A DNA stretch of 64,000 nucleotides from NCBI GenBank assembly GCA_021785355.1, contig JAJYFR010000001.1, positions 66,976-130,975 on the forward strand. Reading direction: 5' to 3'. Positions within the stretch are counted from its first letter, which is position 1. Each line of letters begins with the position of its first letter. Source of the DNA: a bacterium. Its GTDB lineage: Bacteria; Patescibacteriota; Dojkabacteria; JAKAPS01; JAJZLI01. Below are positions 472 to 26,848 of this stretch, one piece after another. The position numbers and the translations under genes were made by a program. Under the pieces are notes generated by a model. That model did not search any database and was not told where the DNA came from. It saw nothing but the letters and a program-made list of their open reading frames with translations.

Positions 472-927
472 ATGAAAAGAATTAAAAATAAAATATTAAG
501 TTTAATTTTAACTTTATCAGCTCTAATCTCAGCAACATTAGTTCCTGTGTTTGCAGCTACTAGTTATGTTCCTGCATCTATATCAGGTTCTACTCTATCT
601 ACAAATCCAAATGGAATAATATCTACAATTATTAATTTTCTTTTTATAATAGTAGGTTTAATATTCTTTGTTATTCTTGTTATTGCAGGAATACAGTGGG
701 TAACAGCAGGTGGAGAAGAGAAAGGAAAAGAGGAAGCTCAAAAAAGAATTATTAATGCAATCATAGGAGTTGCTATTGTAGCAGGATCTTACTTGATAGT
801 AGAAATAGTATCAGGATTATTAGGAATAGGTGGAATATTTGGAAATAATCTATTTACTCATAATTGTGGTACTACTACAAATTCTTCTGGATCAAGTGTT
901 TGTCTTAATGGTACATTAGGAAATTAA
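472..927 (+). CDS. VirB2/TrbC-like T4SS pilin family small membrane protein (paralog 2, N-terminal signal peptide)
   Basis: 151 aa. Signal-peptide-like N-terminus (MKRIKNKILSLILTLSALISATLVPVFAAT), then the same two-helix core as ORF 32..400 (IAGIQWVTAGGEEKGKEEAQKRIINAIIGVAIVAGSYLIVEIVSG) and a C-terminal Cys pair. Confidence 0.4.
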   Translation: MKRIKNKILSLILTLSALISATLVPVFAATSYVPASISGSTLSTNPNGIISTIINFLFIIVGLIFFVILVIAGIQWVTAGGEEKGKEEAQKRIINAIIGVAIVAGSYLIVEIVSGLLGIGGIFGNNLFTHNCGTTTNSSGSSVCLNGTLGN

Positions 928-943
928 TTTAGATTTATAAAGT

Positions 944-975
944 AAAAAAAAGGAAGCTTTTGCTTCCTTTTTTTT
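944..975. terminator. Bidirectional rho-independent terminator between convergent pilin-like gene (+) and hsp20 (-)
   Basis: A-run 944-950, stem aggaagc (951-957), loop tttt, stem gcttcct (962-968), T-run 969-975. Confidence 0.6.
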
Positions 976-976
976 G

Positions 977-1387
977 TTATTTTACTGAAATACTCTTAGG
1001 TTTTGATTGTTCTGATTTTGGAAGAATAAGAGTAAGTACTCCATTTTTATATTCAGCTTGAGATTTATCATTTTCTACTCTTGATGGTAGAGTAATAGAT
1101 CTTGCTATGCTTTGATGTTTAATCTCTTTTCTGTAATATTTTTTTCCTTTATCTTCATTTTCTTCTTTAGCTTCCGCTTTTATAGTTAAAGTATCTCCTT
1201 CTACAGTTAGGGAGAAGTCTTCCTTTTCAAAACCTGGAGCTTTCATTTTCACTACAACATTGTCTTTTTCTTCATAAATATCTAATGATCCTGTTCCTGT
1301 TTGAAAAAAATTATCCAAATCAAAATCATCGTCATCAAAAAATTTAGGAAAGACTATGTTATAAGGATTCCATCTTGTTATTGCCAT
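977..1387 (-). CDS. Hsp20/alpha-crystallin family small heat-shock protein
   Basis: 136 aa. Alpha-crystallin domain features (KAPGFEKEDFSLTVEGDTLTIKAE ... GVLTLILPK). Good SD aggaggtg upstream on minus strand. Confidence 0.8.
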   Translation of the reverse strand: MAITRWNPYNIVFPKFFDDDDFDLDNFFQTGTGSLDIYEEKDNVVVKMKAPGFEKEDFSLTVEGDTLTIKAEAKEENEDKGKKYYRKEIKHQSIARSITLPSRVENDKSQAEYKNGVLTLILPKSEQSKPKSISVK

Positions 1388-1471
1388 AAATATTCACCTC
1401 CTTTTATCACTCATTAGTGATGTCTGCCAATATTTTACAACTAGTTTTTTCATTTGTCAACACATCTTTGT

Positions 1472-1477
1472 TATAAT
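1472..1477 (+). promoter_or_regulatory. Candidate extended -10 promoter (TGtTATAAT) for the sbcD-sbcC-spoIID-like operon
   Basis: ctttgtTATAATg 10 nt upstream of ATG 1487. Weak -35. Confidence 0.3.
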
Positions 1478-1486
1478 GATTAAATA

Positions 1487-2611
1487 ATGAATAATATTAC
1501 TTTTATACATACAGCAGATATACATTTAGGACGTAAGTTTCTTTACTTAAAAGATAAATCAATTGAGGCTAGAGAACATTTATTCGATATTTTAGAAAAA
1601 ATTGTAAATATAGCTATAGAGAAGAATGTTAAATTTTTAATAATATCAGGAGATCTTTTTGATTCTAATAATCCTTCAATGTATGTAGTAGCAAAATTTT
1701 TAGATAGTGTTTCTTTATTAGAAAAACATAAGATAAAGATAATCTTACTTCCAGGAACTCATGATTATTTAAAAGCAAATGGAATATATTCTAATAGTAT
1801 TTTCAATTCATATAAAAATCTATATATCTTTAATGATCCTAGTAAGAAATCTATTGAATTTGAAGATTTATCTTTAGGTTTTTATGCCTATCCTCCTATT
1901 TCTAATAAAATGAAAGACTCTCCCATTGTAGGTTTTGATTTTAATAATAATCTAAAGTACAGGATCATTCTTGCTCATGGATCAGTTCAAATTACAGGAA
2001 AATCTGCTTTTGATGATAGCCCAATAACTCTTGATGAAATTAAGAATTCAAATGCTTCATATATTGCATTAGGTCACTGGCATCAGAACATAGATTTTTC
2101 CAACACAGTACCATGTTTTTACAGTGGATCACCTGAATTAATAGATTTAGATCAAATTAATTCTGGTTTTGTTATGTATGGAGATCTAAATAATAATAAA
2201 TTTGAAAAAATTAAAGTAGGAGAAAGATTTTTTGATGAAATAATTATACCTATAGATAGTATTAAATCTAGAGAAAAATTAATTGAACAAATCATATCAA
2301 ATGCAGATAGAAATCTTATAAGAAAAGTTAATATAATAGGTAAAAAGAACGAAAGTACCTTAGGTTTGAATTTTGATTTAATTAGAGATGAGATATATAA
2401 GTATTTCTATTATCTTATTATTGATGATAAATCATATTTGGATATAGATCTTTCTATAGATTATGATAATTTATCAAGCATAGAGAAAGCTTATATAGAT
2501 AAAATGAAAAATTTAATAGATAATTCTAAAACTGAAGAAGAGAAAGATCTATATAAAGAGTCTTTAGAATTAGGTTATGCATTATTACAAGGGAGGTTTG
2601 ATTTACTATGA
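1487..2611 (+). CDS. sbcD: Mre11/SbcD-family DNA repair exonuclease (calcineurin-like metallophosphoesterase)
   Basis: 374 aa. Phosphoesterase motifs HTADIHLG, ISGDLFD, LPGTHD, ILAHGS, ALGHWHQ. Stop overlaps next start (ATGA). Confidence 0.8.
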   Translation: MNNITFIHTADIHLGRKFLYLKDKSIEAREHLFDILEKIVNIAIEKNVKFLIISGDLFDSNNPSMYVVAKFLDSVSLLEKHKIKIILLPGTHDYLKANGIYSNSIFNSYKNLYIFNDPSKKSIEFEDLSLGFYAYPPISNKMKDSPIVGFDFNNNLKYRIILAHGSVQITGKSAFDDSPITLDEIKNSNASYIALGHWHQNIDFSNTVPCFYSGSPELIDLDQINSGFVMYGDLNNNKFEKIKVGERFFDEIIIPIDSIKSREKLIEQIISNADRNLIRKVNIIGKKNESTLGLNFDLIRDEIYKYFYYLIIDDKSYLDIDLSIDYDNLSSIEKAYIDKMKNLIDNSKTEEEKDLYKESLELGYALLQGRFDLL

Positions 2612-4668
2612 AGCTTAAAAATATAGATATACAAAATTTTAGACAAATAGAGAATAAAAAATATGAGTTTAAAGATGATATAAACATAATATATGGTAAA
2701 AATGAATCTGGAAAAACCACTTTATTTTATTCAATAATATCTGCTTTTTTTGATAATCCTAAAAAAATAAGAAAAACTTTACTTGAAAGTTATAAGCCTT
2801 GGGGTAAAGATGTTTATCCTGTAATAAAATTTTTATTACAAAAAGATAATGACAAATTCTATATTACTAAAGATTTTAATCAGAAAAAAACTTATTTGAA
2901 TGATAATGAAGTCGAAAATGTAGACAAATTAATACTAGATCTACTAGGACTTAATAAAGATTTATTTGAAAAATTATCATGTGTATACCAAAATCAAATA
3001 TCTTCTATTGAGGATAATCCAAAAGCTTTAGAAAAGTCCATATTAGATATAATATCTTCAAATTCTTCACAAGGAGTAAATGTTTTAGAAGTTGAAGATA
3101 AAATACAGAAAAAAGTTCAAAATATGAAATTAGGTTTAGATAGAGCATCTAAAAATATAGGAATATTAAAAAAATTAGATTTAGAAATAGAAGATTTAGA
3201 ACAAAAAATATTATTTGATAAAAAAGAGTTATCTTCATATTCTGAGAAGATAGATGATTTGAGTAAGAAAAAGAAAGAGAGAAGTGATATAGAAAAAAGA
3301 TTCAATGAAAATAAATCTTTTATAGAAAAATCACAAAAAGCAAAAACTTTAGTATCTCAACTAAAGAATATAGAAGAAGAAATGAAATCTTTAGAATCTA
3401 AATTAAATAGATTGAATAATTTAAATAAAGATTTTGAAAGAGTACAAAGTGAATACCAAAAAGATTTATTAGAAAAAATGGATAAAGCTCAGGACAAGAT
3501 AATAAATCTAAGAAATTCAATAGATTTAAGAAAAAATGATTTGAAGTTATTAGAAGTAGAGAAAGGAAACATAGATAATATGAAGTTAAAACCGATTAGG
3601 ACTAATTCTCCTATAATAATTATTGTAAGTTTATTTCTTCTTCTTCTTACATTTATATCAGCATTCTTTTCTTTTTATATACTTATAAGTTTATTTTTAG
3701 ATATAGTGTTTGTAGCCTTCTATTTACGATTTGTGGATTATAATAGGCTTGAAAAATTTCATAATCCAGCTATAGAAGGAATTAGTTCTCTTCAAAAAGA
3801 TATTTTAGATAAAGAAACGGAACTAAATTTAATATTAAGTGAATTTCATCTAACAAATATTAATGAATTTTTTAAAAAAAGAACGAAAATGCTTTCTTTA
3901 AAAGAAGAGTTTATCAAATTAGATTCAACTATAAGAGGACTTTTAGGTACAGATTCTTTAGAAATATTTGAGAATAAATTAAGTGAATTTTCCATGAAAA
4001 AGAGGGATATAAATACAGAATTAGATCAAGGATTGAGAGATTTTATGGATATAGATAAAATTCTTTTAAATAGAAAGATTTTAGAAAATGAAGACTTAGA
4101 TCTAGATCTTTTTTCTTTAAATGAAGATATTATTGCACTGGAGTCTAGAGTAGGTGATAATTCTATTACAGAAGAAGATATTGAGAATTTAGAATTGTTA
4201 TTAGAAAATAAAAAGGAAGAAAAAAGTTTTTATTCAAAAAGATTGAATGTATTAAATATCATAGTAAACAATTTGTCTGGAGCAAAAGATACTGTTATAA
4301 AAACAATATCTGAAGATTTAGTTAAACTAGGGAGTGAGTGGATAGAAAAAATAACGGAAGGTAAATATTCTAAAATAGATTTATTAAATAATGAAAAATT
4401 TACAATTTTTGACAGAGGAACGAGTAAATATGTAGATTCATCTCAGTTTCTTTCTACAGGTCTTAAAGATCAAATATATTTATTATCTAGGCTTTCTATA
4501 TTAAATGTTGTTTTAGAAGGGAAATCTTCAGTTATGTTTTTTGATGATCCATTTATTAATTTTGATATAGAGAGATTAACTATATTAATAGATCTTTTAA
4601 AAAACTTTTCCTCTAATAATCAAATTTTCATATTTACTTGTCATAAAATATTAAAAGATTTGGCATGA
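2608..4668 (+). CDS. sbcC: Rad50/SbcC-family SMC-like ATPase with a central transmembrane hairpin in place of a zinc hook
   Basis: 686 aa. N-terminal Walker A GKNESGKTT. C-terminal signature LSTGLKDQ, Walker B VMFFDDPF. Long coiled-coil-like K/E/L-rich arms. About 40 hydrophobic residues at aa 334-373 (nt 3607-3726); no CxxC in the middle. Confidence 0.75.
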   Translation: MKLKNIDIQNFRQIENKKYEFKDDINIIYGKNESGKTTLFYSIISAFFDNPKKIRKTLLESYKPWGKDVYPVIKFLLQKDNDKFYITKDFNQKKTYLNDNEVENVDKLILDLLGLNKDLFEKLSCVYQNQISSIEDNPKALEKSILDIISSNSSQGVNVLEVEDKIQKKVQNMKLGLDRASKNIGILKKLDLEIEDLEQKILFDKKELSSYSEKIDDLSKKKKERSDIEKRFNENKSFIEKSQKAKTLVSQLKNIEEEMKSLESKLNRLNNLNKDFERVQSEYQKDLLEKMDKAQDKIINLRNSIDLRKNDLKLLEVEKGNIDNMKLKPIRTNSPIIIIVSLFLLLLTFISAFFSFYILISLFLDIVFVAFYLRFVDYNRLEKFHNPAIEGISSLQKDILDKETELNLILSEFHLTNINEFFKKRTKMLSLKEEFIKLDSTIRGLLGTDSLEIFENKLSEFSMKKRDINTELDQGLRDFMDIDKILLNRKILENEDLDLDLFSLNEDIIALESRVGDNSITEEDIENLELLLENKKEEKSFYSKRLNVLNIIVNNLSGAKDTVIKTISEDLVKLGSEWIEKITEGKYSKIDLLNNEKFTIFDRGTSKYVDSSQFLSTGLKDQIYLLSRLSILNVVLEGKSSVMFFDDPFINFDIERLTILIDLLKNFSSNNQIFIFTCHKILKDLA

Positions 4669-6524
4669 ATATTATTAAAAGAAAATACATTTATATACTT
4701 TTATTCTTTATATTTATAGTGTCTATTAAAACTTTGTTTGCTCAAAGTGTAGGTAGTGTTAGTCAATATAATTCTCAAATCAATCAAGATAATCAACAAA
4801 TACAACAATTGCAAACTCAAGAAACTTCTCTACAGAATGCGTTAAATTCTCAAATTGCAAATAAAAATACAATACTTTCTAATTTATATAATATTAATTC
4901 TAATATATATACTTATGAAAGTAATATAAGTAAGATAAAAATCTTAATCTCAAATCTTAATTCATTAAATATCAAAAATAGGGAAAAGATAAAAAAAGAT
5001 ATTATTGTTAGAAATAATATAGAAAGTTCTATTTATATAAATATGCAAACAAACCCTATATATTATATTTTTTCTTCTAAAGATTTTAATAATGCAATTG
5101 TAACTATATATTTAAGTCTTTCTCAATTGTCTTCATATAAAAACAAGATAATATCTATAAATAATGAGATTAATACAATAAAAACTGACCTTTTGAAGCA
5201 GAAGAATTTTGAAAATACTCTTATTACAGAAGAAAATAATCTTAAACCTGTTCAACAAACCCTATATTCCAATCTGAATCAATATAATAATTCTATAAAT
5301 AGTACAAACAACACACTTAATCAAGTTGGAGGTCAAATCTCTGCACTTCAAGCCGATATTCAAAGACTTAATAATCTTGAAACTTTAGCTCAAGCAAAAG
5401 CTTCAACTCAAACATCTTCACCTCCTAGTGAAATAAATCCAAATCCATTATCCAGTTGTAATAATAATCAATGTAATTTTCAATTTACATCATATGGTTT
5501 TGGTAATCCTATGGGAATGTCTCAATATGGAATGTTAGGGATGGCAAATCAGGGCAGTAATGCATCTCAGATAGCTACTAACTATTATCAAGGAAGTAGT
5601 ATTTCTGCTGTAGCAAATTTAGATAATACTATAGTTAATGTTCCAGGATATGGAAAAATGACACTACAGAATTATTTAGCGGGAATAGGAGAAGTTCCAA
5701 ACTCTTGGCCCAATCAAGCTATTGAGGCCCAAATAATAATATCTAGAAGTTATGTTCTATATAGGCTAGATTCTTGTTCTGATTATTCATCTTGTACTCC
5801 TACTGTACCTACAAATATAAATATACCTTCAACAGGAACCGATTTTCAAGTATATGACGGTGGGACCGCTAAAATGAGTGAAGTTATAGCTAGTGAAAAT
5901 CAAGTGCTAACATATAATGGATCTTTAGTTAATGCCTTTTTTTCTTCTTCTAATGGAGGATACGAAGAGAGTATAGGTACTGTAGAGTGTGTTTTATGGA
6001 ATAATTGTAATTACAGTTCTTTTCTTTCGAATTATCTTAAAGCTCAACCAGACCCATATGATACCTCAACTGCTAATGTAGACCCTTCTTATCAATATGC
6101 AAATCCTGCTATGAATACGACACAACTTATTAATATAGTAAATACAGCACAAGCTTTGTGTGCAGGTGTAAATTCTTGTTATTTATTTAATAATAATAAT
6201 GGGTCGAATTCTTTTGATAATGCTTATTCAACGGATAATTCTAATACTAATTATAATAATTCTTCAAATGATACATTTACCAATATCAATCAATACCTTA
6301 CATCTAATGGTATATCTCCGATAAATTCTATTGTAAATTTTTCAATATCTACAATGGGACATATGCCATCTGAGATTAATGTAGTAAGTCTTCATCATAA
6401 TATAACAATAAATGCGGGAGTGTTTTGGTTAGCATTTTTATTAGTTTCTCCTAATTATTCTAATTTTAATGATGATTTAGTCGGTTTTAGATATACAGTT
6501 AATATAACAGGTACTACACCATAG
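4665..6524 (+). CDS. Secreted coiled-coil protein with C-terminal SpoIID/LytB-like domain
   Basis: 619 aa. N-terminal signal/anchor (ILLFFIFIVSIKTLFAQS), Q/N-rich coiled-coil region. SpoIID-like motif GFGNPMGMSQYGMLGMANQG ... YYQGSS. Start overlaps sbcC stop (ATGA). Confidence 0.5.
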   Translation: MNIIKRKYIYILLFFIFIVSIKTLFAQSVGSVSQYNSQINQDNQQIQQLQTQETSLQNALNSQIANKNTILSNLYNINSNIYTYESNISKIKILISNLNSLNIKNREKIKKDIIVRNNIESSIYINMQTNPIYYIFSSKDFNNAIVTIYLSLSQLSSYKNKIISINNEINTIKTDLLKQKNFENTLITEENNLKPVQQTLYSNLNQYNNSINSTNNTLNQVGGQISALQADIQRLNNLETLAQAKASTQTSSPPSEINPNPLSSCNNNQCNFQFTSYGFGNPMGMSQYGMLGMANQGSNASQIATNYYQGSSISAVANLDNTIVNVPGYGKMTLQNYLAGIGEVPNSWPNQAIEAQIIISRSYVLYRLDSCSDYSSCTPTVPTNINIPSTGTDFQVYDGGTAKMSEVIASENQVLTYNGSLVNAFFSSSNGGYEESIGTVECVLWNNCNYSSFLSNYLKAQPDPYDTSTANVDPSYQYANPAMNTTQLINIVNTAQALCAGVNSCYLFNNNNGSNSFDNAYSTDNSNTNYNNSSNDTFTNINQYLTSNGISPINSIVNFSISTMGHMPSEINVVSLHHNITINAGVFWLAFLLVSPNYSNFNDDLVGFRYTVNITGTTP

Positions 6525-6568
6525 ATAGTGTATATTTGATTTTTTAAATATGGTATCATTTTTATATA

Positions 6569-7657
6569 ATGAAATTAGATGTAAAAATAAAGACATATAT
6601 ACCTAAGAATAATGAAAAAGATTCATTTTCTCATGTATATATGCATGATCCACAAGAAGAAAGTCTTCTTGAAACAAGAGGAAAACTATTTTCAGCTATA
6701 GATGTAAGGACTAAGAATAGAGATGTAGATATAGAATCTTTAGTAAATGAGTTTCTAGATAATATAGAGTTAGAATATTTTAGTAATGATGTCTCTAGTA
6801 TTATAAATATTCTTGATAAATCAGTAAATATAGCTTATTCAAAATTATCACAAAAGATTATAGATATGGAATTGAGTGGGAATATAGATTTTAATGTAGG
6901 TTGTTTTGTAATTTGGGGTGATATTGCTTATATGGCAAGAATAGGGGAAACAAAGATTTATCTTTTTAGAGACGGTAAGTTTATGAATTTATCAGATCAT
7001 TTATTAGCAGTTGGAAAGAGTATTGTCTCTACAGCTAGTGGATATGCTAAAAATAAAGATATTTTTTTTATGTCCACATCTTTGATTAAAAACTATTTAG
7101 ATGAGAAAAAAATAAAAGATATTTGTAATTCATCTCAAGAAGAAATTTCACAAATGGAATTAGGGAATAAGAATATATCATTTATTGTAATGCAAATAGA
7201 AACAACAGAGGAAGATATAAAAGATGAAGAATTAGAAAAAGATGAAGAGGTAGTAGTTGAATTAAATGATTCTTCTGATAATATAGAGAGTGAAGAACAT
7301 ATAGATAATATTCAGAAAAGATCTCTTAATGATTTTGATTTAAAAAATAAAGCGAAAAAAATGACCTCTTATATTATAAATTCAACAAAAAATACTTCTT
7401 CTAATATATACAAAAATATAAATACTAATGTAAAGAAAGTGGATTGGAAATCTTTAATGAAATCTATTTTAACTGTTATATTAACTTTTTTTGAATGGAT
7501 ATTTTATTCACTAGTATACCTAAAAGATAGATCCCAAAAACAATATAAATTAAAAATTAATAGAGATATAGAGATTTTAAAAAAAGAGAAAAAAACAGTT
7601 ATTGGTATAGTAATATTTCTTATATTATTTATACTAATATATAATTTTTTTTTTTAA
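6569..7657 (+). CDS. Hypothetical membrane-anchored protein with PP2C-phosphatase-like core (possibly degenerate), acidic linker and C-terminal TM
   Basis: 362 aa. NVGCFVIWGDIAYMARIGETKIYLFRDGKFMNLSDH resembles the PP2C motif (VANVGDSRAYL.RDG...LT.DH) with D-to-E change. DE-rich linker. C-terminal hydrophobic helix. Confidence 0.3.
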   Translation: MKLDVKIKTYIPKNNEKDSFSHVYMHDPQEESLLETRGKLFSAIDVRTKNRDVDIESLVNEFLDNIELEYFSNDVSSIINILDKSVNIAYSKLSQKIIDMELSGNIDFNVGCFVIWGDIAYMARIGETKIYLFRDGKFMNLSDHLLAVGKSIVSTASGYAKNKDIFFMSTSLIKNYLDEKKIKDICNSSQEEISQMELGNKNISFIVMQIETTEEDIKDEELEKDEEVVVELNDSSDNIESEEHIDNIQKRSLNDFDLKNKAKKMTSYIINSTKNTSSNIYKNINTNVKKVDWKSLMKSILTVILTFFEWIFYSLVYLKDRSQKQYKLKINRDIEILKKEKKTVIGIVIFLILFILIYNFFF

Positions 7658-7799
7658 AGCTCTAAAAAATCAAAAAAATACATATAGTAGTAATATTGTA
7701 TCAAAAAAAATTTTATCTGAGATTGCTACTAATATTAAATCTATAAATAATCAAAATTCTATATCTTCAAAAGATATTATTATAAATAGAACTTATTCT

Positions 7800-8711
7800 T
7801 TGATTAATAAATTAAAAGATAATTCTTCTAGTAAATCTTACCTTAATGAATTGAACAATATATATTATTCTTTAAATGATGTAATTCCTATAAATAATTA
7901 TACAATCCTGTCAGACATAGGGATTTCTTATCCTGGAGCTGAAATTAGTTCTTTACAAAACTTATCTGGAAATATATATCTAACTGATCCTAAACTGCAA
8001 TATGTATATTCAATATCAGATACTACTCAATCAACTCCAACTCAGTTTGAGAGATTGTCTTCAGGTATATCCATTCCTCAATCAATTACATATTCATTGT
8101 CAAAGAATTCCTTATTTTTATATGACACAGATAGAGGTCTTTTTAGTGTAGCACTAAATGGAACTTTATCTCCAATAATAGGTCCTGTACCAAATTCAAA
8201 TATATCAAGTATTCAATCATATATGGGGAACATCTATATGTTAGATAGCTCTAAAGGTATAATATATAATGTAAACACAACAACTCTTTCATATACTAAT
8301 GGATTAAAATCCAAATATTTAGTAGGTGCAAGGTCGTTTGCTGTAGATGGAAATATTTTTGTTATAGATAAATCTGGTAATATTGTACGTTTTTATGCAA
8401 ATACATATACTCCATTTGCAATTTCTAATTCTCAAGCTATGGAATATTCTTTGAATAAGAGTTCATATATTTATGATAATCAGTACTCTAATTATATATA
8501 TATTGTAGATCCAGCTCATTACAGAATAGTAGTTTTACAAAAACCTGCAGCAGGTTCAGTAAATACAACGGATTATAAATTTGTAAAGCAGTATGTATAT
8601 ACAGGAAGTAATAAAAGCTTATTTTCAAATATAACAGATTTATCGATATCAGCATCTGGAAAGAGTTTTTATTTATTATCTGGAACTAAAATAATTAAAA
8701 TATTTATATGA
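7800..8711 (+). CDS. Hypothetical protein with repeated beta-propeller-like (NHL/YVTN-type) blades
   Basis: 303 aa. Repeats GNIYLTDPK, GNIYMLDSSKGIIYNV, DGNIFVIDKSGNIVRF, NYIYIVDPAHYRIVVL. The only start available is TTG at 7800: frame open from 7638, no ATG/GTG, no SD. Start uncertain. Confidence 0.3.
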   Translation: MINKLKDNSSSKSYLNELNNIYYSLNDVIPINNYTILSDIGISYPGAEISSLQNLSGNIYLTDPKLQYVYSISDTTQSTPTQFERLSSGISIPQSITYSLSKNSLFLYDTDRGLFSVALNGTLSPIIGPVPNSNISSIQSYMGNIYMLDSSKGIIYNVNTTTLSYTNGLKSKYLVGARSFAVDGNIFVIDKSGNIVRFYANTYTPFAISNSQAMEYSLNKSSYIYDNQYSNYIYIVDPAHYRIVVLQKPAAGSVNTTDYKFVKQYVYTGSNKSLFSNITDLSISASGKSFYLLSGTKIIKIFI

Positions 8712-15638: not shown

Positions 15639-18282
15639 TAAAAAATTTTTTATTATAGATTCTCATGCACTGATATATCGTGCTTATCATGCTGTACCTC
15701 AACTTACGTCTAAAAATAGAAATGTTAATGCTGTATATGGGTTCTTTTCAATATTACTTAGATTAATAGATAAATATGAACCAGCTTATATAGTATGTGC
15801 TTTTGATTCTCCAACAAGTACTTTTATTAAAAAAAAGAAATTTACATGGTATAAAGCTAATAGAGAAAAAGTCCCTGATGAATTAATTGAACAATTTGAG
15901 TATGTAAAAGAAATATTAAGAGCTTTTAATATTAGTATAATAGAATCTTTAGATTATGAGGCAGATGATGTTGTTTCTTCTATAGCTAAAAAATTTAAAA
16001 AAGATTTTGATATCTTTGTTATTACAGGTGATAAAGATTTACTACAACTTGTAGATGATAAGGTATCTTTAATAATGCCAGGGAAATCTTTTTCTGATCC
16101 TAAAGAAATAAATAATTCAAATGTAGAAGAAATTCTAGGTTTTAAGAATAAATATCTTTTAACTTTTAAAAGTTTAAAAGGTGATCCTTCTGATAATATA
16201 CCTGGAGTACCTGGTATAGGAGATAAAACAGCTCAAGATTTAATTCTTCTTTATGGAGATCTTTTTGGTATATATGAAAATATAGATAATGTTAAAGAAT
16301 CATTAAAGCAAAAACTTATAAAAGGAAAGCAGTCAGCATATGATTCTTTTGAAGCTGCAAAATTATTTTATGATATTGATGTTAATCTTGATGTTAGTAA
16401 AATAAAAATAGCATTTGATTATGATAAGATTGTTGAAAAATTGAATGAATATGATTTTAATAGTCTAAAAAATAAATATTTTTCTAAATATAAGATAGAG
16501 GAGAATTCGGGAGTAGAATATAAAGCTCCTAAAGAAATTAATGATGATAATATAAAAACAATATCTAAGGATTTAGAGGAATTAAAAATAGTATATTTTT
16601 ATATACTCAATAATCATACTAATAACTCTATATACAGCATCTTTTTTCTTGTTAAAGATACTATTTATTATATAGATGATTTTAAGAAAGATTCTAATAT
16701 AAAGATTTTAAAAGATATTTTTTCTGATATTAATATAGAAAAAGTTTCTTTTCAGAGTAAAGATGATATGCACTCTCTAAACAACATAGGTATACCTTTT
16801 GAGGGTAAGTATTTTGATATAAATCTAGGTTATTTTATTCTAAAAGGTAAAAATACAACAATTAAATCTATTATTTATGAAATTTTTTCAGTAGAAATTG
16901 AAGATATATCTCTATTAACAATGAATGGTAAGTTTAGTTTAGATGATATAGATAAAGAAAAGTTATTAAAAAACTCTTTTTATTATATATATTATCTTCC
17001 TCTTTTGTATGAAAATATTGTACATAATCTTGAAAAAGATGATTTAAATAATTCTGTATTTAGGAATATTGATTTACCTTTAATTAAAGTACTTTTTGAC
17101 ATAGAAAAGACAGGGATAGAAATAGATGTTGAATATTTAAAAAATCTTTATAAAGAAATTAATGAAAAGATACTTTTGTTAGAGAACAAGATTTTCAAAT
17201 CTGTAGGTAAAGATTTTAATATATCTTCATCTTTACAATTAAGTAATGTGTTATATGAAGACTTAAAATTACCTTACTTTAAAAAATTAAAAAGTGGTAT
17301 ATTTCCTACAGATGATATAACACTGGAAGGTTTGTCTAAAAGAAATCCAGTAGTTGATGATATTCGTAAATACAAAGAATTAAAAAAACTTAATAGTACA
17401 TATACATTAAGTTTAGTTAAATTTGTAGATGATAAATTAAGAATACATACTACATATAACATAACAGGTGTAAGTACAGGTAGATTATCATCAAAGAATC
17501 CTAATTTACAAAATCTTCCAAATAAAACAGAATTAGGTAGAGATATAAGAAAGGCTTTTATTCCTAGTAAAAATCATATATTTATATCTTTTGATTATTC
17601 TCAGATAGAACTGAGGTTGATGGCTTTCTTTTCTCAAGATGAAAATATGAAAAAAGCATTTAATGAAGGTTTAGATATACATACATATACAGCTTCTCAG
17701 ATTTTTAATAAATTAGAAAAGGATATTACTAAAGATGAAAGAAACAAAGCTAAGACAATTAATTTTGGAGTAATATATGGCATATCTTCATATGGTTTAT
17801 CTCAACAGTTAGGTATTACAAGGAAAGAAGCTAATGATTTTATAGAGAATTATTTTAAAAGATTTTCTTCAATAAAAAATTATTACAAATATATAGAAAC
17901 TTTTGTTGAAAAAAATGCATTTGTAGAAACTTTGTTTGGAAGAAAAAGACATTTTGATACTACTTCTGGAAGTTATATAGTTAAGAGTCACATATTTAGG
18001 GAAGCTATCAATATGCCAATTCAAGGTACTTGTGCTGATATAATAAAAATATCTATGAATAAAATTTTCAATAATAATGAATATTTGAAATATAAAGCCA
18101 AAATATTAATGCAGATCCATGATGAATTAGTGTTTGAAGTGCCAAAGAATGTTGATAAAGAGGCATTTATAAAATTAATTAGTTCTTTAATGACAGATTT
18201 TAAGGAAATCGATATTCCTTTGAGGGTAGATTCTAAATATGGAGATAATTTAAGAGATTTAGTTGTATATGAAAATAAATAA
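15628..18282 (+). CDS. polA: DNA polymerase I
   Basis: 884 aa. N-terminal 5'-3' exonuclease domain. Polymerase motifs DYSQIELR (A), RNKAKTINFGVIYG (B), QIHDELVFE (C). Confidence 0.9.
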   Translation: MSDNKKFFIIDSHALIYRAYHAVPQLTSKNRNVNAVYGFFSILLRLIDKYEPAYIVCAFDSPTSTFIKKKKFTWYKANREKVPDELIEQFEYVKEILRAFNISIIESLDYEADDVVSSIAKKFKKDFDIFVITGDKDLLQLVDDKVSLIMPGKSFSDPKEINNSNVEEILGFKNKYLLTFKSLKGDPSDNIPGVPGIGDKTAQDLILLYGDLFGIYENIDNVKESLKQKLIKGKQSAYDSFEAAKLFYDIDVNLDVSKIKIAFDYDKIVEKLNEYDFNSLKNKYFSKYKIEENSGVEYKAPKEINDDNIKTISKDLEELKIVYFYILNNHTNNSIYSIFFLVKDTIYYIDDFKKDSNIKILKDIFSDINIEKVSFQSKDDMHSLNNIGIPFEGKYFDINLGYFILKGKNTTIKSIIYEIFSVEIEDISLLTMNGKFSLDDIDKEKLLKNSFYYIYYLPLLYENIVHNLEKDDLNNSVFRNIDLPLIKVLFDIEKTGIEIDVEYLKNLYKEINEKILLLENKIFKSVGKDFNISSSLQLSNVLYEDLKLPYFKKLKSGIFPTDDITLEGLSKRNPVVDDIRKYKELKKLNSTYTLSLVKFVDDKLRIHTTYNITGVSTGRLSSKNPNLQNLPNKTELGRDIRKAFIPSKNHIFISFDYSQIELRLMAFFSQDENMKKAFNEGLDIHTYTASQIFNKLEKDITKDERNKAKTINFGVIYGISSYGLSQQLGITRKEANDFIENYFKRFSSIKNYYKYIETFVEKNAFVETLFGRKRHFDTTSGSYIVKSHIFREAINMPIQGTCADIIKISMNKIFNNNEYLKYKAKILMQIHDELVFEVPKNVDKEAFIKLISSLMTDFKEIDIPLRVDSKYGDNLRDLVVYENK

Positions 18283-20014
18283 ATACAGTTTTGATTCACT
18301 TTGTGAACATTTAATTTTATTAGAAAAAATTTCATCTAGAAATCAAATTACAGAGGTTATATCAAACCTATTAAAAGAGATACCTCAAGAGTATGTGGAG
18401 GAATTTATGTATTTGATAAATGGTAGGGTAGCTCCATTTTATGTGAAATCTGATTTTAATATAGGAGATAAAATGATAACAGATGTTCTTAGTGAAGTTC
18501 TTTTACTAGATAATGCTCAGGTAGTATCATATCTAAATGAATATGGAGATTTAGGTACTGTTTTTTATAATAACAAAAAAGGAGATATTCAAAACTATGA
18601 ATTCATAGATATATTTAATTTTTTAAAAGAGATTTCCTTAATTGAGGGGAAAGATTCAAATAAAATAAAGCGAGATCGACTTATTGAAATGTTAAAAACA
18701 TTATCTCCTAATTCTGGAAAATACCTAATTAGAATAGTCTTAGGGAAACTAAGGTTAGGGTTTAGTAATAAAACTTTATTAGATGCAATATCATACTCAA
18801 TAAAAGGTGATAAATCTTTAAGGAAACCTTTAGAATCTGCATATTCTAGATGTTCAGATATTGGAATAGTAGCAAAATATGCTTTTTTAGATATAAATTC
18901 TTTAAATGATTTTTCAATAAAGATAGGTATCCCTATATTTCCAAAATTAGTAGAACGTTCATCATCTATAAATGATGGTATTAAAAGATTTAAAGAAGTT
19001 TATGCCCAACCTAAATTTGATGGATTAAGGTGTCAGATCCATATATTAGATTCAGGAGAAATAAAACTATTCTCAAGAAATCTTAATGATATAACTGATT
19101 TATTTCCTCAATTTATAGAAAGCTTTCAAAAACTAAATGTTAAAAATGCTATTTTTGATTCAGAAATAATAGGAATAAATCTTATTACAAATAAATTTTT
19201 ATTGTTTCAAGATACGGTTAAAATGAAGAGAAAGAACAATCTAATAGTAGATGATAACAATGAGATGAAAGCTTTTATATTTGATGTAATATATCTTAAT
19301 TCCAAATCTTTTTTAAATGAACCTTTCAAAAATAGAATTATGGTTTTATCAGGTCTTTTTTCTGATAATAATTATAAAAATATAGAATTAACAGAAACGA
19401 AAATTTTTTCTAAAGAAGAAGATGTCTACGATTATTTTGAAGAAAATATTAATAAAGGTTTGGAAGGTGTAGTCCTTAAGAATCCCAATAGTTTATATAC
19501 TCCAGGCACACGTAATTTTGATTGGCTAAAACTGAAAAGAGATTCTTTGAAAGATGTTGTTGATACAATTGATGCTGTAATAATGGGGTATTACAAAGGT
19601 AGTGGTAGTAGAGCAAAGTTAGGGATAGGTGGGGTTTTAGTAGGTATATATAATTCTAATAAAAATAAATTTGAAACTATATGTAAATTAGGAAGTGGTT
19701 TTTCAGAAGAAGAACTGGTAGATTTAAAAGCATCTTTAGATTTAAATATCATTAATAATCCAGATAAATTCTATGTTTTCAATAAAGATATCACTCCAGA
19801 TGTATGGGTGGATCCTAAGATAGTAGTAGTTATAAGATCTGATGAAATAACAAAAAGTCCTATACATACATCAGGTATGGATCAGGATAAAGATAAGAAA
19901 GGTTTTGCTTTAAGATTTCCTAGATTTATAAGTTTTAGAGTCGATAAAGGGGCTTATGATTCAACAAGTGTCTCTGAGGTGGAATCTATGTATAAAATTG
20001 AAAAAAATATATGA
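18263..20014 (+). CDS. ATP-dependent DNA ligase
   Basis: 583 aa. Motif I KFDGLR, motif IV EGVVLK, motif V DAVIMGY, motif VI FPRFISFRVDK. Start overlaps the polA end (alternative ATG at 18269). Confidence 0.8.
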   Translation: MYMKINKYSFDSLCEHLILLEKISSRNQITEVISNLLKEIPQEYVEEFMYLINGRVAPFYVKSDFNIGDKMITDVLSEVLLLDNAQVVSYLNEYGDLGTVFYNNKKGDIQNYEFIDIFNFLKEISLIEGKDSNKIKRDRLIEMLKTLSPNSGKYLIRIVLGKLRLGFSNKTLLDAISYSIKGDKSLRKPLESAYSRCSDIGIVAKYAFLDINSLNDFSIKIGIPIFPKLVERSSSINDGIKRFKEVYAQPKFDGLRCQIHILDSGEIKLFSRNLNDITDLFPQFIESFQKLNVKNAIFDSEIIGINLITNKFLLFQDTVKMKRKNNLIVDDNNEMKAFIFDVIYLNSKSFLNEPFKNRIMVLSGLFSDNNYKNIELTETKIFSKEEDVYDYFEENINKGLEGVVLKNPNSLYTPGTRNFDWLKLKRDSLKDVVDTIDAVIMGYYKGSGSRAKLGIGGVLVGIYNSNKNKFETICKLGSGFSEEELVDLKASLDLNIINNPDKFYVFNKDITPDVWVDPKIVVVIRSDEITKSPIHTSGMDQDKDKKGFALRFPRFISFRVDKGAYDSTSVSEVESMYKIEKNI

Positions 20015-21649: not shown

Positions 21650-21713
21650 AAAGTAGTAGGTCTCTAAAATTCTGGATTTTTAATGTTGATCCTACAAATA
21701 ACATTTTTTTTGA

Positions 21714-23210
<1,497 letters not shown>

Positions 23211-23322
23211 TTAAGGAGATATTTATAAAAACCTAAATAGAAAATTAGAGTTCCTGCTACTTTTAAATTGTAAAAAACATTACAAAGAATGATCTTTAAA
23301 ATATTTTATTGTATGGAGTAAG

Positions 23323-23396
23323 GGGCGACTAGCTCAGTTGGTTAGAGCGCAGTCCTGATAAGACTGAGGTCCATGGTTCGATTCCATGGTCGCCCA
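23323..23396 (+). tRNA. tRNA-Ile (GAU) in the 16S-23S spacer
   Basis: gggcgac...agctcagttggttagagc...ctGATaa...ggttcgattcc...gtcgccca. Confidence 0.9.
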
Positions 23397-23408
23397 GTTT
23401 TAATCAGT

Positions 23409-23481
23409 GGGGACGTAGCTTAGTTGGTATAGCGCTTCATTTGCACTGAAGAGGTCAGGAGTCCGAATCTCCTCGTCTCCA
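23409..23481 (+). tRNA. tRNA-Ala (UGC) in the 16S-23S spacer
   Basis: ggggacgtagcttagttggtatagc, anticodon loop ttTGCac, T-arm aggagtccgaatctcct. Confidence 0.9.
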
Positions 23482-23546
23482 AAAATAAAATATGGTGCTC
23501 TTTTAAAAGTGAATAGAAAAGTGGGTATTTAATATTTAAATTACTC

Positions 23547-26658
<3,112 letters not shown>

Positions 26659-26742
26659 AATTAATATTAAATACAAGACTTTCTATTCACTTTTAAAGGA
26701 GTATTCTCTTTTTGAGAAATTTCTGTTAAAATACTTTTAAAT

Positions 26743-26848
26743 TCTTGGTGATTGTAGCAAAGTGGAACTACCTCTTCCATTCCGAACAGAGTCGTAAAAC
26801 GCTTTAGCTCCGAAAATACTGTAAGGGAAGATAGGTCATTGCCAAGAT
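26743..26848 (+). rRNA. rrf: 5S ribosomal RNA
   Basis: cttggtgattgtagcaaagtggaactacctcttccattccgaacagag...gtaagggaagataggtcattgccaag, matching the bacterial 5S pattern. Confidence 0.8.

Follow-up and report, generated by a model that had tools for sequence, protein, structure and literature searches.

A short-armed Rad50-like ATPase of the YhaN/SbcE family from a Dojkabacteria genome, with a probable membrane hairpin at the zinc-hook position

A 64,000-nucleotide (nt) stretch of a Dojkabacteria genome (assembly GCA_021785355.1, contig JAJYFR010000001.1, positions 66,976 to 130,975; hereafter the window) encodes a Rad50-like ATPase of 686 amino acids (aa), with a 42-residue hydrophobic block at its midpoint, and directly upstream of it a nuclease of the Mre11/SbcD type. 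The function of Rad50 and SbcC depends on a zinc hook at the tip of the coiled coil. The best explanation for the window proteins, to which we assign a probability of roughly 0.78, is a short-armed Rad50-type ATPase of the YhaN/SbcE family, paired with a YhaO/SbcF-like nuclease and held in the membrane at its apex by a hairpin of two helices. This analysis has established the order of the domains, the integrity of the ATPase and nuclease motifs, where the block lies, how long and how hydrophobic it is, that it is conserved throughout the family, and the pairing of the two genes. Coordinates of the features are collected in Table 1.

The block (residues 335-376) is almost uncharged and is centred at 0.52 of the ATPase length. 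A first-pass annotation of the window had placed a hydrophobic stretch of about 40 residues at nt 3607-3726, and these coordinates are exact, since in the open reading frame (ORF) 2608..4668 they translate as residues 334-373, SPIIIIVSLFLLLLTFISAFFSFYILISLFLDIVFVAFYL. The Kyte-Doolittle mean over 19 residues (KD19) is at least 1.2 across all segments covering residues 327-379 and peaks at 2.97; in the rest of the protein its maximum is 1.0. The best 40-residue mean is 2.43, compared with 0.94 ± 0.25 in 20,000 shuffles of the same 686-aa protein, none of which reached the observed value. Insertion energies were estimated on a position-independent apparent free-energy scale of the Hessa type. 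The sum for the first predicted transmembrane helix (TM1, 336-354) is -5.0 kcal/mol, and the minimum elsewhere in the ATPase is +9.7.

A hydrophobic stretch of this kind could also stem from extreme AT richness, since T-rich codons encode Phe, Ile and Leu, or from a mistake in assembly or a frameshift. Both the window and the genome have about 25% G+C, and the 120-nt segment that encodes the block is 55% T. We regard the probability of this explanation as negligible. The result of the shuffles speaks against it, the ATPase ORF is identical or nearly so on at least 16 independent contigs, and GC-rich homologues from Paenibacillus, Myxococcota and Chloroflexota carry a block rich in A, L, G and V at the same relative position. 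Because the block is found in AT-rich and GC-rich phyla alike, base composition does not explain it, and this cross-phylum conservation refutes the explanation as a whole.

Cysteines are found in the ATPase only at C125 and C678, with none in between, and a search for CxxC across all 686 aa, the motif of the canonical Rad50/SbcC zinc hook, returned nothing. The block replaces the hook and does not accompany it. Escherichia coli SbcC, run through the same scripts as a control, has its CxxC (PCPLCG) at residue 506 of 1048, or 0.48 of the length, a maximum hydropathy of 1.54 and no hydrophobic segment at its apex, unlike the window protein with its 42 residues and no CxxC. The first-pass claims that the block sits at the midpoint where SbcC has its CxxC, that the central region is devoid of cysteine and that there is room for two transmembrane (TM) helices were thus all borne out, the last by predicted helices at 336-353 and 355-375 (see below).

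The resemblance of the ATPase to Rad50/SbcC, asserted in the same annotation, was also upheld. In Pfam, SMC_N, AAA_23 and AAA_27 match the N-terminus and AAA_21 the C-terminus. The AAA_27 match (PF13514; residues 1-132) reaches 31.7 bits (gathering cut-off 22), as for a P-loop of the YhaN type. NCBIfam matches to Rad50 and RecF models are sub-threshold, and the Rad50 equivalog cut-offs are not reached (PRK03918, 58.5 bits vs 700; Rad50_Sulf, 44.6 vs 1000). All motifs of a split ATP-binding cassette (ABC) head, as in canonical Rad50/SbcC, are present: GKNESGKT, Q128, LSTGL, FFDD, D653 and H679. Residues G30, N32, E33, G35, K36 and T38 are invariant in the N-terminal half of the family alignment, and Y587, S616, G618, Y624, R628, D646, D653, R656, Q672 and C678 in the C-terminal half. 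The FFDD form of Walker B is common to the window ATPase and Bacillales YhaN (DDPF in Sporosarcina), with LDE in Clostridial members. The H-loop His is kept in the window ATPase, whereas most Clostridial members have Thr in its place. Searching the PDB with a profile of 51 family members aligned both head halves with P. furiosus Rad50 (3qku, E 2.5e-25); no solved YhaN-type protein was found in this search.

An AlphaFold2 (AF2) model was built on the 51-member alignment and read by secondary structure and predicted local distance difference test (pLDDT) values, of which the mean is 79. It comprises a head at residues 1-175 (pLDDT about 90), a helix at 186-323, a loop at 324-335, the two helices of the block, a loop at 376-387, helices at 388-582 and a head at 587-686. 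A Foldseek comparison of the model with the PDB put Rad50 of the C. thermophilum MRN complex first (E 4e-15) and SMC-type proteins next. The hinge that characterizes SMC proteins proper is missing, as SMC_hinge was not found in the Pfam scan of the ATPase and the modelled midpoint consists of the two hydrophobic helices only. Each arm contains about 135 helical residues, or roughly 20 nm, after allowing for head residues and breaks; the final 40 or so residues of the descending arm probably belong to the head already. In the N-terminal arm, residues 187-316 exceed the 99th percentile of shuffles in a home-made heptad score.

The block recurs throughout the family. Homologues were gathered as the best 120 database matches, all of them with PF13514, and as 80 loci from a scan of one genome per species, giving 200 pooled sequences. 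In 117 of the best 120 homologues a hydrophobic block lies at 0.47-0.56 of the length, and CxxC occurs in none. The pooled set contains the block in 190 of 200 sequences (three of the ten exceptions are fragments), with a median length of 45 aa, which fits two helices of about 20 residues and a short loop; many members indeed show a polar loop of 3-8 residues between two segments of about 20. The 80 loci cover Chloroflexota, Clostridia, Bacillales, Actinomycetota, Armatimonadota, Myxococcota, Hydrogenedentota and others, nearly all with the central block. A hidden Markov model search of 1.84 billion cluster representatives (clusters at 50% identity) yielded 10,571 clusters at E ≤ 1e-30, and all 116 full-length sequences among the top 150 representatives have the block, at relative position 0.508 ± 0.015. 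Five CxxC strings were detected in this top set, located at C-termini, within the head or in a TM helix; not one is an apical hook. Clades share the length and hydrophobicity of the block but hardly any of its sequence.

Judging from sequence, the window ATPase belongs to the YhaN/SbcE family, the central block is a hallmark of that family, and the feature defines the whole of it rather than being special to the window. The assignment follows from the AAA_27 match above cut-off, from database labels and from Bacillales orthologues in a yhaO-yhaN...yhaM context. Relatives with 56% identity to the window protein are labelled "uncharacterized protein YhaN" by JGI, and PGAP labels a Sphingomonas relative "YhaN family protein", adjoining a "DNA repair exonuclease". 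A link to Bacillus YhaN, suggested in the first-pass annotation, is in this way substantiated by the labels, by block-bearing Bacillales orthologues and by the literature (PMC2811018). In a Peribacillus locus with the Bacillales arrangement, yhaO and yhaN are followed by two inserted genes and then a YhaM-like HD/OB protein. YhaM-like genes are confined to 9 of the 80 loci, all from Bacillales, and yhaM linkage is thus lineage-specific and not family-defining; the window differs from the Bacillales yhaONM arrangement in having a SpoIID-domain gene, and no yhaM, downstream of the pair.

Bacillus subtilis YhaN was named SbcE by Krishnamurthy et al. in 2009, who described a "unique central domain" in all homologues, the first half of which is hydrophobic, reported that SbcE is without the CxxC of SbcC/Rad50 and found the isolated central domain completely insoluble on expression (PMC2811018). 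Interaction of SbcE with YhaO (SbcF) was detected by yeast two-hybrid and is known for B. subtilis only; mutants have phenotypes in double-strand break repair and, mildly, in transformation (PMC2811018). A 2019 survey calls the role of SbcEF "poorly characterized" (PMC6452273). The literature search retrieved this one functional paper on SbcE (2009) and no paper that combines Rad50, SbcD, transmembrane and zinc hook. The family is thus large, named, present in many phyla and mechanistically uncharacterised, and its architecture is documented already; the membrane-anchor reading and the mechanism are unexplored in the literature. The window protein is a new short-armed member of this family and not a new kind of protein.

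The window pair shares with B. subtilis SbcE/SbcF the Rad50-like split ABC head, the two helical arms, the central hydrophobic domain without CxxC, AAA_27, the DDPF Walker B and an Mre11-like gene directly upstream. Unlike Bacillales YhaN, of roughly 950-1100 aa with arms of about 300 residues, the window protein is about 30% shorter, with 686 aa and arms of about 135. Identity to Bacillales YhaN is 21-26% over the heads, and the organism that carries the window protein is very AT-rich and has a small genome, which together with its T4SS_pilin arrays would suit a CPR/Patescibacteria bacterium. With E. coli SbcCD and Mre11-Rad50 the pair has in common homologous head halves, antiparallel arms, a phosphoesterase with Mre11 motifs and gene adjacency, and, as in sbcDC, the nuclease gene comes first. 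It differs from canonical Rad50/SbcD in scoring far under the NCBIfam equivalog cut-offs.

Some PF13514 relatives have neither the block nor CxxC, although they share the head family and an Mre11-like gene upstream. They were found in Marinobacter (L035 5001-7652; L067 5001-7631), Thermoplasmata (L065 5001-7694) and Seohaeicola (L069 2442-5873). In Marinobacter and Thermoplasmata the midpoint is a Gly/Val/Thr-rich insert, probably beta-structured and soluble, which would be a third kind of apex. These relatives show that the apex module is exchangeable in the wider family.

The nuclease gene is paired with the ATPase gene by an ATGA overlap of 4 nt between its stop and the ATPase start, as in translational coupling, and in about 70 of the 80 genome loci an Mre11-like gene likewise lies directly upstream on the same strand, in the position of YhaO/SbcF. 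In NCBIfam the nuclease, a calcineurin-like phosphoesterase, matches Mre11_Sulfo (E 6.7e-21, residues 6-337) and sbcd (E 2.1e-19), both under the equivalog cut-offs. Its metal ligands D11, H13, D56, H92/D93, H164, H197 and H199 are kept. A promoter and terminator scan of positions 900-7800 gave 45 promoter-like sites against 56.5 in shuffles, which is uninformative in AT-rich DNA. A -35/-10-like pair seen by eye upstream of the nuclease gene was dropped, as its spacer is too short.

The halves of the head have to come together in the cytoplasm, so the arms are expected to be antiparallel and the midpoint block to form the apex. The chain would leave the N-terminal head half along a coiled-coil arm of about 138 residues and, after a Pro-containing linker of about 12 residues, would enter the cytoplasmic membrane as a tight hairpin composed of TM1 (335-353), a turn at (S/G)-(F/Y)-Y and TM2 (355-376). 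A conserved juxtamembrane linker and the second helical arm would lead it back to the C-terminal half of the head. The two halves, and with them ATP binding, DNA binding and the nuclease, would be cytoplasmic, about 20 nm from the membrane. At the position of the zinc hook the hairpin most likely does the job of the hook and fixes the apex. Lateral association of two hairpins may hold the arms of a dimer together and confine the complex to the membrane surface; hairpin pairing in the apex-joining role of the zinc hook would be the most economical proposal. When ATP drives the heads together they would grip DNA ends or hairpins so that the nuclease can cut them, as happens in SbcCD and Mre11-Rad50, and cleavage would be limited to DNA close to the envelope. 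Membrane insertion, two spans, dimerisation between hairpins and the DNA substrate are the parts of this scheme that we infer.

Two spans are favoured indirectly, because an even number of crossings is needed for the head halves to meet, because the helices have 18-21 residues and because charged loops separate the two segments in other clades. The block might otherwise be monotopic, as a re-entrant hairpin or an in-plane helix in the inner leaflet that does not cross the bilayer. A turn without polar loop in the window lineage, the minimal break in the AF2 model and the invariant Asp in TM2, marginal on the insertion scale, are compatible with such an arrangement. Nevertheless, the helices are long enough for a bilayer span, and a hairpin that stopped short of crossing would bury the charged loops (K, N, D) of other clades in the core of the bilayer, which makes a monotopic block distinctly unlikely.

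The block could also lie outside the membrane as a buried core for oligomerisation, in which two hairpins might form a four-helix bundle and link the coiled-coil tips in the cytoplasm as a protein-only substitute for the hook. Foci of SbcE fused to yellow fluorescent protein (SbcE-YFP) on the nucleoid or at the poles, with no membrane stain, would suit it, and the insoluble central domain fits soluble-core and membrane models alike (PMC2811018). The well-conserved TM2 and juxtamembrane segment are also what a specific protein interface would show. Even so, we consider a soluble core very unlikely. About 40 consecutive residues with a single charge, hydropathy up to 2.97 and a TM1 score of -5 are far beyond the cores of soluble bundles, since half of each helix would face water. 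Retention of length and hydrophobicity with barely any retention of sequence between clades is the signature of lipid-facing helices, and the polar loop that divides the block of many members into two stretches of about 20 residues also speaks against a soluble core.

Several observations weigh against the membrane-hairpin interpretation or parts of it. The break between the two AF2 helices is a single residue (354) with pLDDT of 55-69, and the predicted secondary structure would fit one kinked 40-residue helix as well as a hairpin. TM2 is marginally hydrophobic, its Hessa-type sum being about 0 kcal/mol because of D365. Flanks of the block are rich in K/R in the pooled set (4.5 and 4.9 per 15 aa), which is weak evidence for membrane topology since the arms are Lys-rich throughout. 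The heptad score flags the N-terminal arm only, and is too crude to judge the C-terminal arm, which is helical in the AF2 model with four breaks. In B. subtilis, SbcE-YFP forms polar or nucleoid-associated foci and the membrane was never invoked (PMC2811018). Furthermore, the catalytic Glu of Walker B is replaced by Asp (FFDDPF, nt 4531-4548, aa 642-647), and motif III of the nuclease (nt 1754-1765, aa 90-93) is GTHD, where 73% of homologues have GNHD; catalytic rates may for these reasons differ from those of canonical enzymes.

The first-pass annotation had proposed an apex pinned in the membrane with both heads in the cytoplasm, and had asked that coiled-coil prediction place the hairpin at the apex. 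The second point stands as far as the N-terminal arm and the AF2 model go, which puts the block between helical arms, but not for the C-terminal arm by heptad score. The first is supported as a reading; insertion itself is well inferred but unproven, as it is for every member of the family, and the two spans are a predicted topology.

Conservation within the lineage was assessed on five sequences with 38-56% identity. Mean identity is highest in the juxtamembrane segment (66%), followed by TM2 (62%), the heads (56-57%) and the arms (41-46%). D365 and the motif YLRF(V/I)DY...NP are among the invariant positions, and the proposed hairpin turn is an aromatic cluster, (S/G)-(F/Y)-Y, at F354-Y357. 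A constraint on TM2 and its juxtamembrane segment exceeding that on the ATPase heads is a new detail that the window lineage suggests; such conservation suggests specific contacts beyond a mere greasy anchor. A conserved helical face in TM1 or TM2 was sought by conservation periodicity in the five sequences and is not claimed, since the periodicity does not peak near 3.5-3.6 residues, even though invariant residues follow a 3-4-3 spacing.

Replacement of the hook by a membrane hairpin across more than 10,000 sequence clusters would imply widespread membrane-tethered machines for DNA-end processing, an aspect that the 2009 paper on SbcE did not recognise (PMC2811018). The window itself adds no new principle and offers incremental information, including a lead to ATPases resembling the coupling proteins of type IV secretion systems (T4SS). 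Its compact 686-aa, short-armed version may be better suited to structural work, and the fact that a reduced genome has kept the pair points to a non-dispensable function.

Table 1. Features of the gene pair and its surroundings. Positions are those of the window unless a locus is named.
Feature	Position (nt)	Strand	Basis or remarks
Two T4SS_pilin (PF18895) paralogues	32-400 and 472-927		At window start; five more further upstream in the same genome (L081)
YhaO/SbcF-like metallophosphoesterase of the Mre11/SbcD family, 374 aa	1487..2611	+	Pfam Metallophos, E 2.8e-13
YhaN/SbcE-family Rad50-like ATPase, whole gene, 686 aa	2608..4668	+	Pfam SMC_N, AAA_23, AAA_27, AAA_21; homologues; AF2 model
N-terminal half of ABC head, aa 1-175; Walker A GKNESGKT aa 30-37 (nt 2695-2718); Q-loop Q128	2608..3132	+	Invariant residues; pLDDT about 90; alignment to Rad50 head
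Ascending coiled-coil arm, aa 186-323, about 20 nm if extended	3163..3576	+	AF2 helices 186-282, 285-323; heptad score
Predicted TM1 of apical hairpin, aa 335-353, PIIIIVSLFLLLLTFISAF	3610..3666	+	KD19 up to 2.97; Hessa-type -5.0; AF2 helix 336-353
Predicted TM2 of apical hairpin, aa 355-376, SFYILISLFLDIVFVAFYLRFV, with clade-invariant D365	3670..3735	+	KD19 2.0-2.4; AF2 helix 355-375
Juxtamembrane motif YLRF(V/I)DY(N/H)(R/K)L..F.NP, aa 372-387, linker from TM2 to descending arm	3721..3768	+	66% mean identity; AF2 loop 376-387
Descending helical arm, aa 388-582, four short breaks	3769..4353	+	AF2 helices 388-411, 418-446, 451-471, 484-516, 522-582
C-terminal half of ABC head, aa 583-686	4354..4665	+	Invariant residues; aligns to C lobe of P. 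furiosus Rad50; DDPF Walker B also in Sporosarcina YhaN
Motifs of C-terminal head: signature LSTGL aa 615-619; Walker B MFFDDP aa 641-646; D-loop D653/R656; H-loop TCH aa 677-679	4450-4464 (signature)
SpoIID/LytB-domain protein, 619 aa	4665-6524		ATGA overlap, start 4 nt inside YhaN stop; N-terminal hydrophobic segment; Q/N-rich coiled-coil region
Two ORFs between SpoIID-like gene and smpB, 362 and 303 aa	6569-7657 and 7800-8711		No Pfam or NCBIfam match; first ends in hydrophobic C-terminal segment
TraG/TrwB/DUF87-like ATPase, 810 aa	9516-11948		Other side of the pair, 4.8 kb downstream
Clostridia loci with coupling protein	L088 3133-7965; L089 3315-7884; also L014, L030, L047, L060, L063, L072, L073		YhaN-like proteins short, about 590-690 aa

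The window represents core chromosome, with FtsH, PolA, an ATP-dependent ligase, MnmA, an rRNA operon, Clp ATPase, PriA, PBP, TopA and Mfd. The window genome and three relatives share a gene order that runs from an AddA-like helicase-nuclease and six or seven T4SS_pilin genes through HSP20 (opposite strand), YhaO, YhaN and SpoIID to two genes of unknown function and SmpB. The SpoIID-domain gene follows YhaN in all three related genomes examined and in no locus of other phyla. After the shared block of genes a TraG/DUF87-like ATPase is present in the window genome and in one relative (L083), the relatives having 38-56% identity. In Clostridia, a TraG/VirD4 coupling protein (PF02534, PF12696, PF10412) is located directly upstream of YhaO-YhaN in two clades and in seven further GTDB loci. 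In the two gene-called loci (L088 and L089) its gene follows three small ORFs (172, about 90 and 160 aa), the last of which overlaps its start; of these ORFs, at least the one of 160 aa is found again in the seven GTDB loci. Housekeeping genes surround these Clostridia loci, with Ddl or MurF and DnaJ upstream and RF1 or SpoIIE downstream.

These neighbours bear on a different role for the same architecture, in which the membrane-anchored pair would act on DNA that crosses the envelope, in uptake, in conjugative or T4SS-like transfer or in surveillance of incoming foreign DNA, rather than in the general repair of chromosome breaks, with the hairpin placing the nuclease beside a TraG/VirD4-type pump. 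The Clostridial gene order, the T4SS_pilin paralogues near the pair in the window and three relatives and the TraG-like ATPases downstream would agree with it, as would the polar foci that B. subtilis SbcE and SbcF form in competent cells and the mild transformation defect of the mutant (PMC2811018). The TraG/VirD4 link is, however, absent from Chloroflexota, Bacillales and most other loci, and the TraG-like gene of the window is five genes away from the pair, while an opposite-strand gene stands between the pair and the pilin genes. Orthology of the window TraG-like ATPase with the Clostridial coupling protein was rejected, their similarity being at superfamily level only (E 0.034), and synteny among three close relatives may just reflect shared ancestry. 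Generic P-loop matches in PADLOC and scarcity on plasmids (see below) also count against an envelope-DNA role, which we hold to be conceivable but doubtful. The recurrence of TraG/VirD4-like genes near the pair is a second new detail; we take it as a pointer to a possible role where DNA is translocated and not as evidence for one.

A more specific version, unlikely in our estimate, would have two hairpins pair in the plane of the membrane through a face of TM2 (D365, F368, Y372) and the YLRFxDY motif, so that the bilayer closes a Rad50-type DNA clamp beside a TraG/VirD4-type translocase, where DNA ends crossing the envelope are processed. If true, such a clamp could serve DNA uptake or exchange with a host in bacteria with small genomes.

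ABC/SMC-type heads are also paired with nucleases in Lamassu LmuB, PARIS AriA, Septu PtuA and Gabija GajA. Foldseek and PADLOC matches to these defence ATPases are weak and limited to the P-loop region (residues 1 to about 100), and none of them has an apical membrane hairpin; the window pair, moreover, is surrounded by housekeeping genes and does not sit in a defence island. The best PADLOC match of the ATPase is LmuB with 43 bits over residues 1-104, and the nuclease matches a generic "Effector" profile with 28 bits; no full-length match to a system profile was obtained, and a defence-system reading was discarded. A mobile-element reading was discarded as well, with the family in 2 of 72,556 plasmid records and the window in the core chromosome. 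Generic P-loop matches and near-absence from plasmids thus give no support to a dedicated role in defence or in mobile elements.

In the related genomes, ORFs without Pfam matches occupy the same positions as the 362- and 303-aa ORFs of the window, a likeness by position. Elsewhere in the window, an ATP-dependent DNA ligase with three ligase domains (18263-20014) lies immediately after PolA, the ends of the two ORFs overlapping. The rRNA operon (21707-26847) is composed of 16S, two tRNAs, 23S and 5S. Its 23S match (23547-26657) has 3111 nt compared with a model of 2925 positions, which leaves about 190 nt extra, in one or more insertions.

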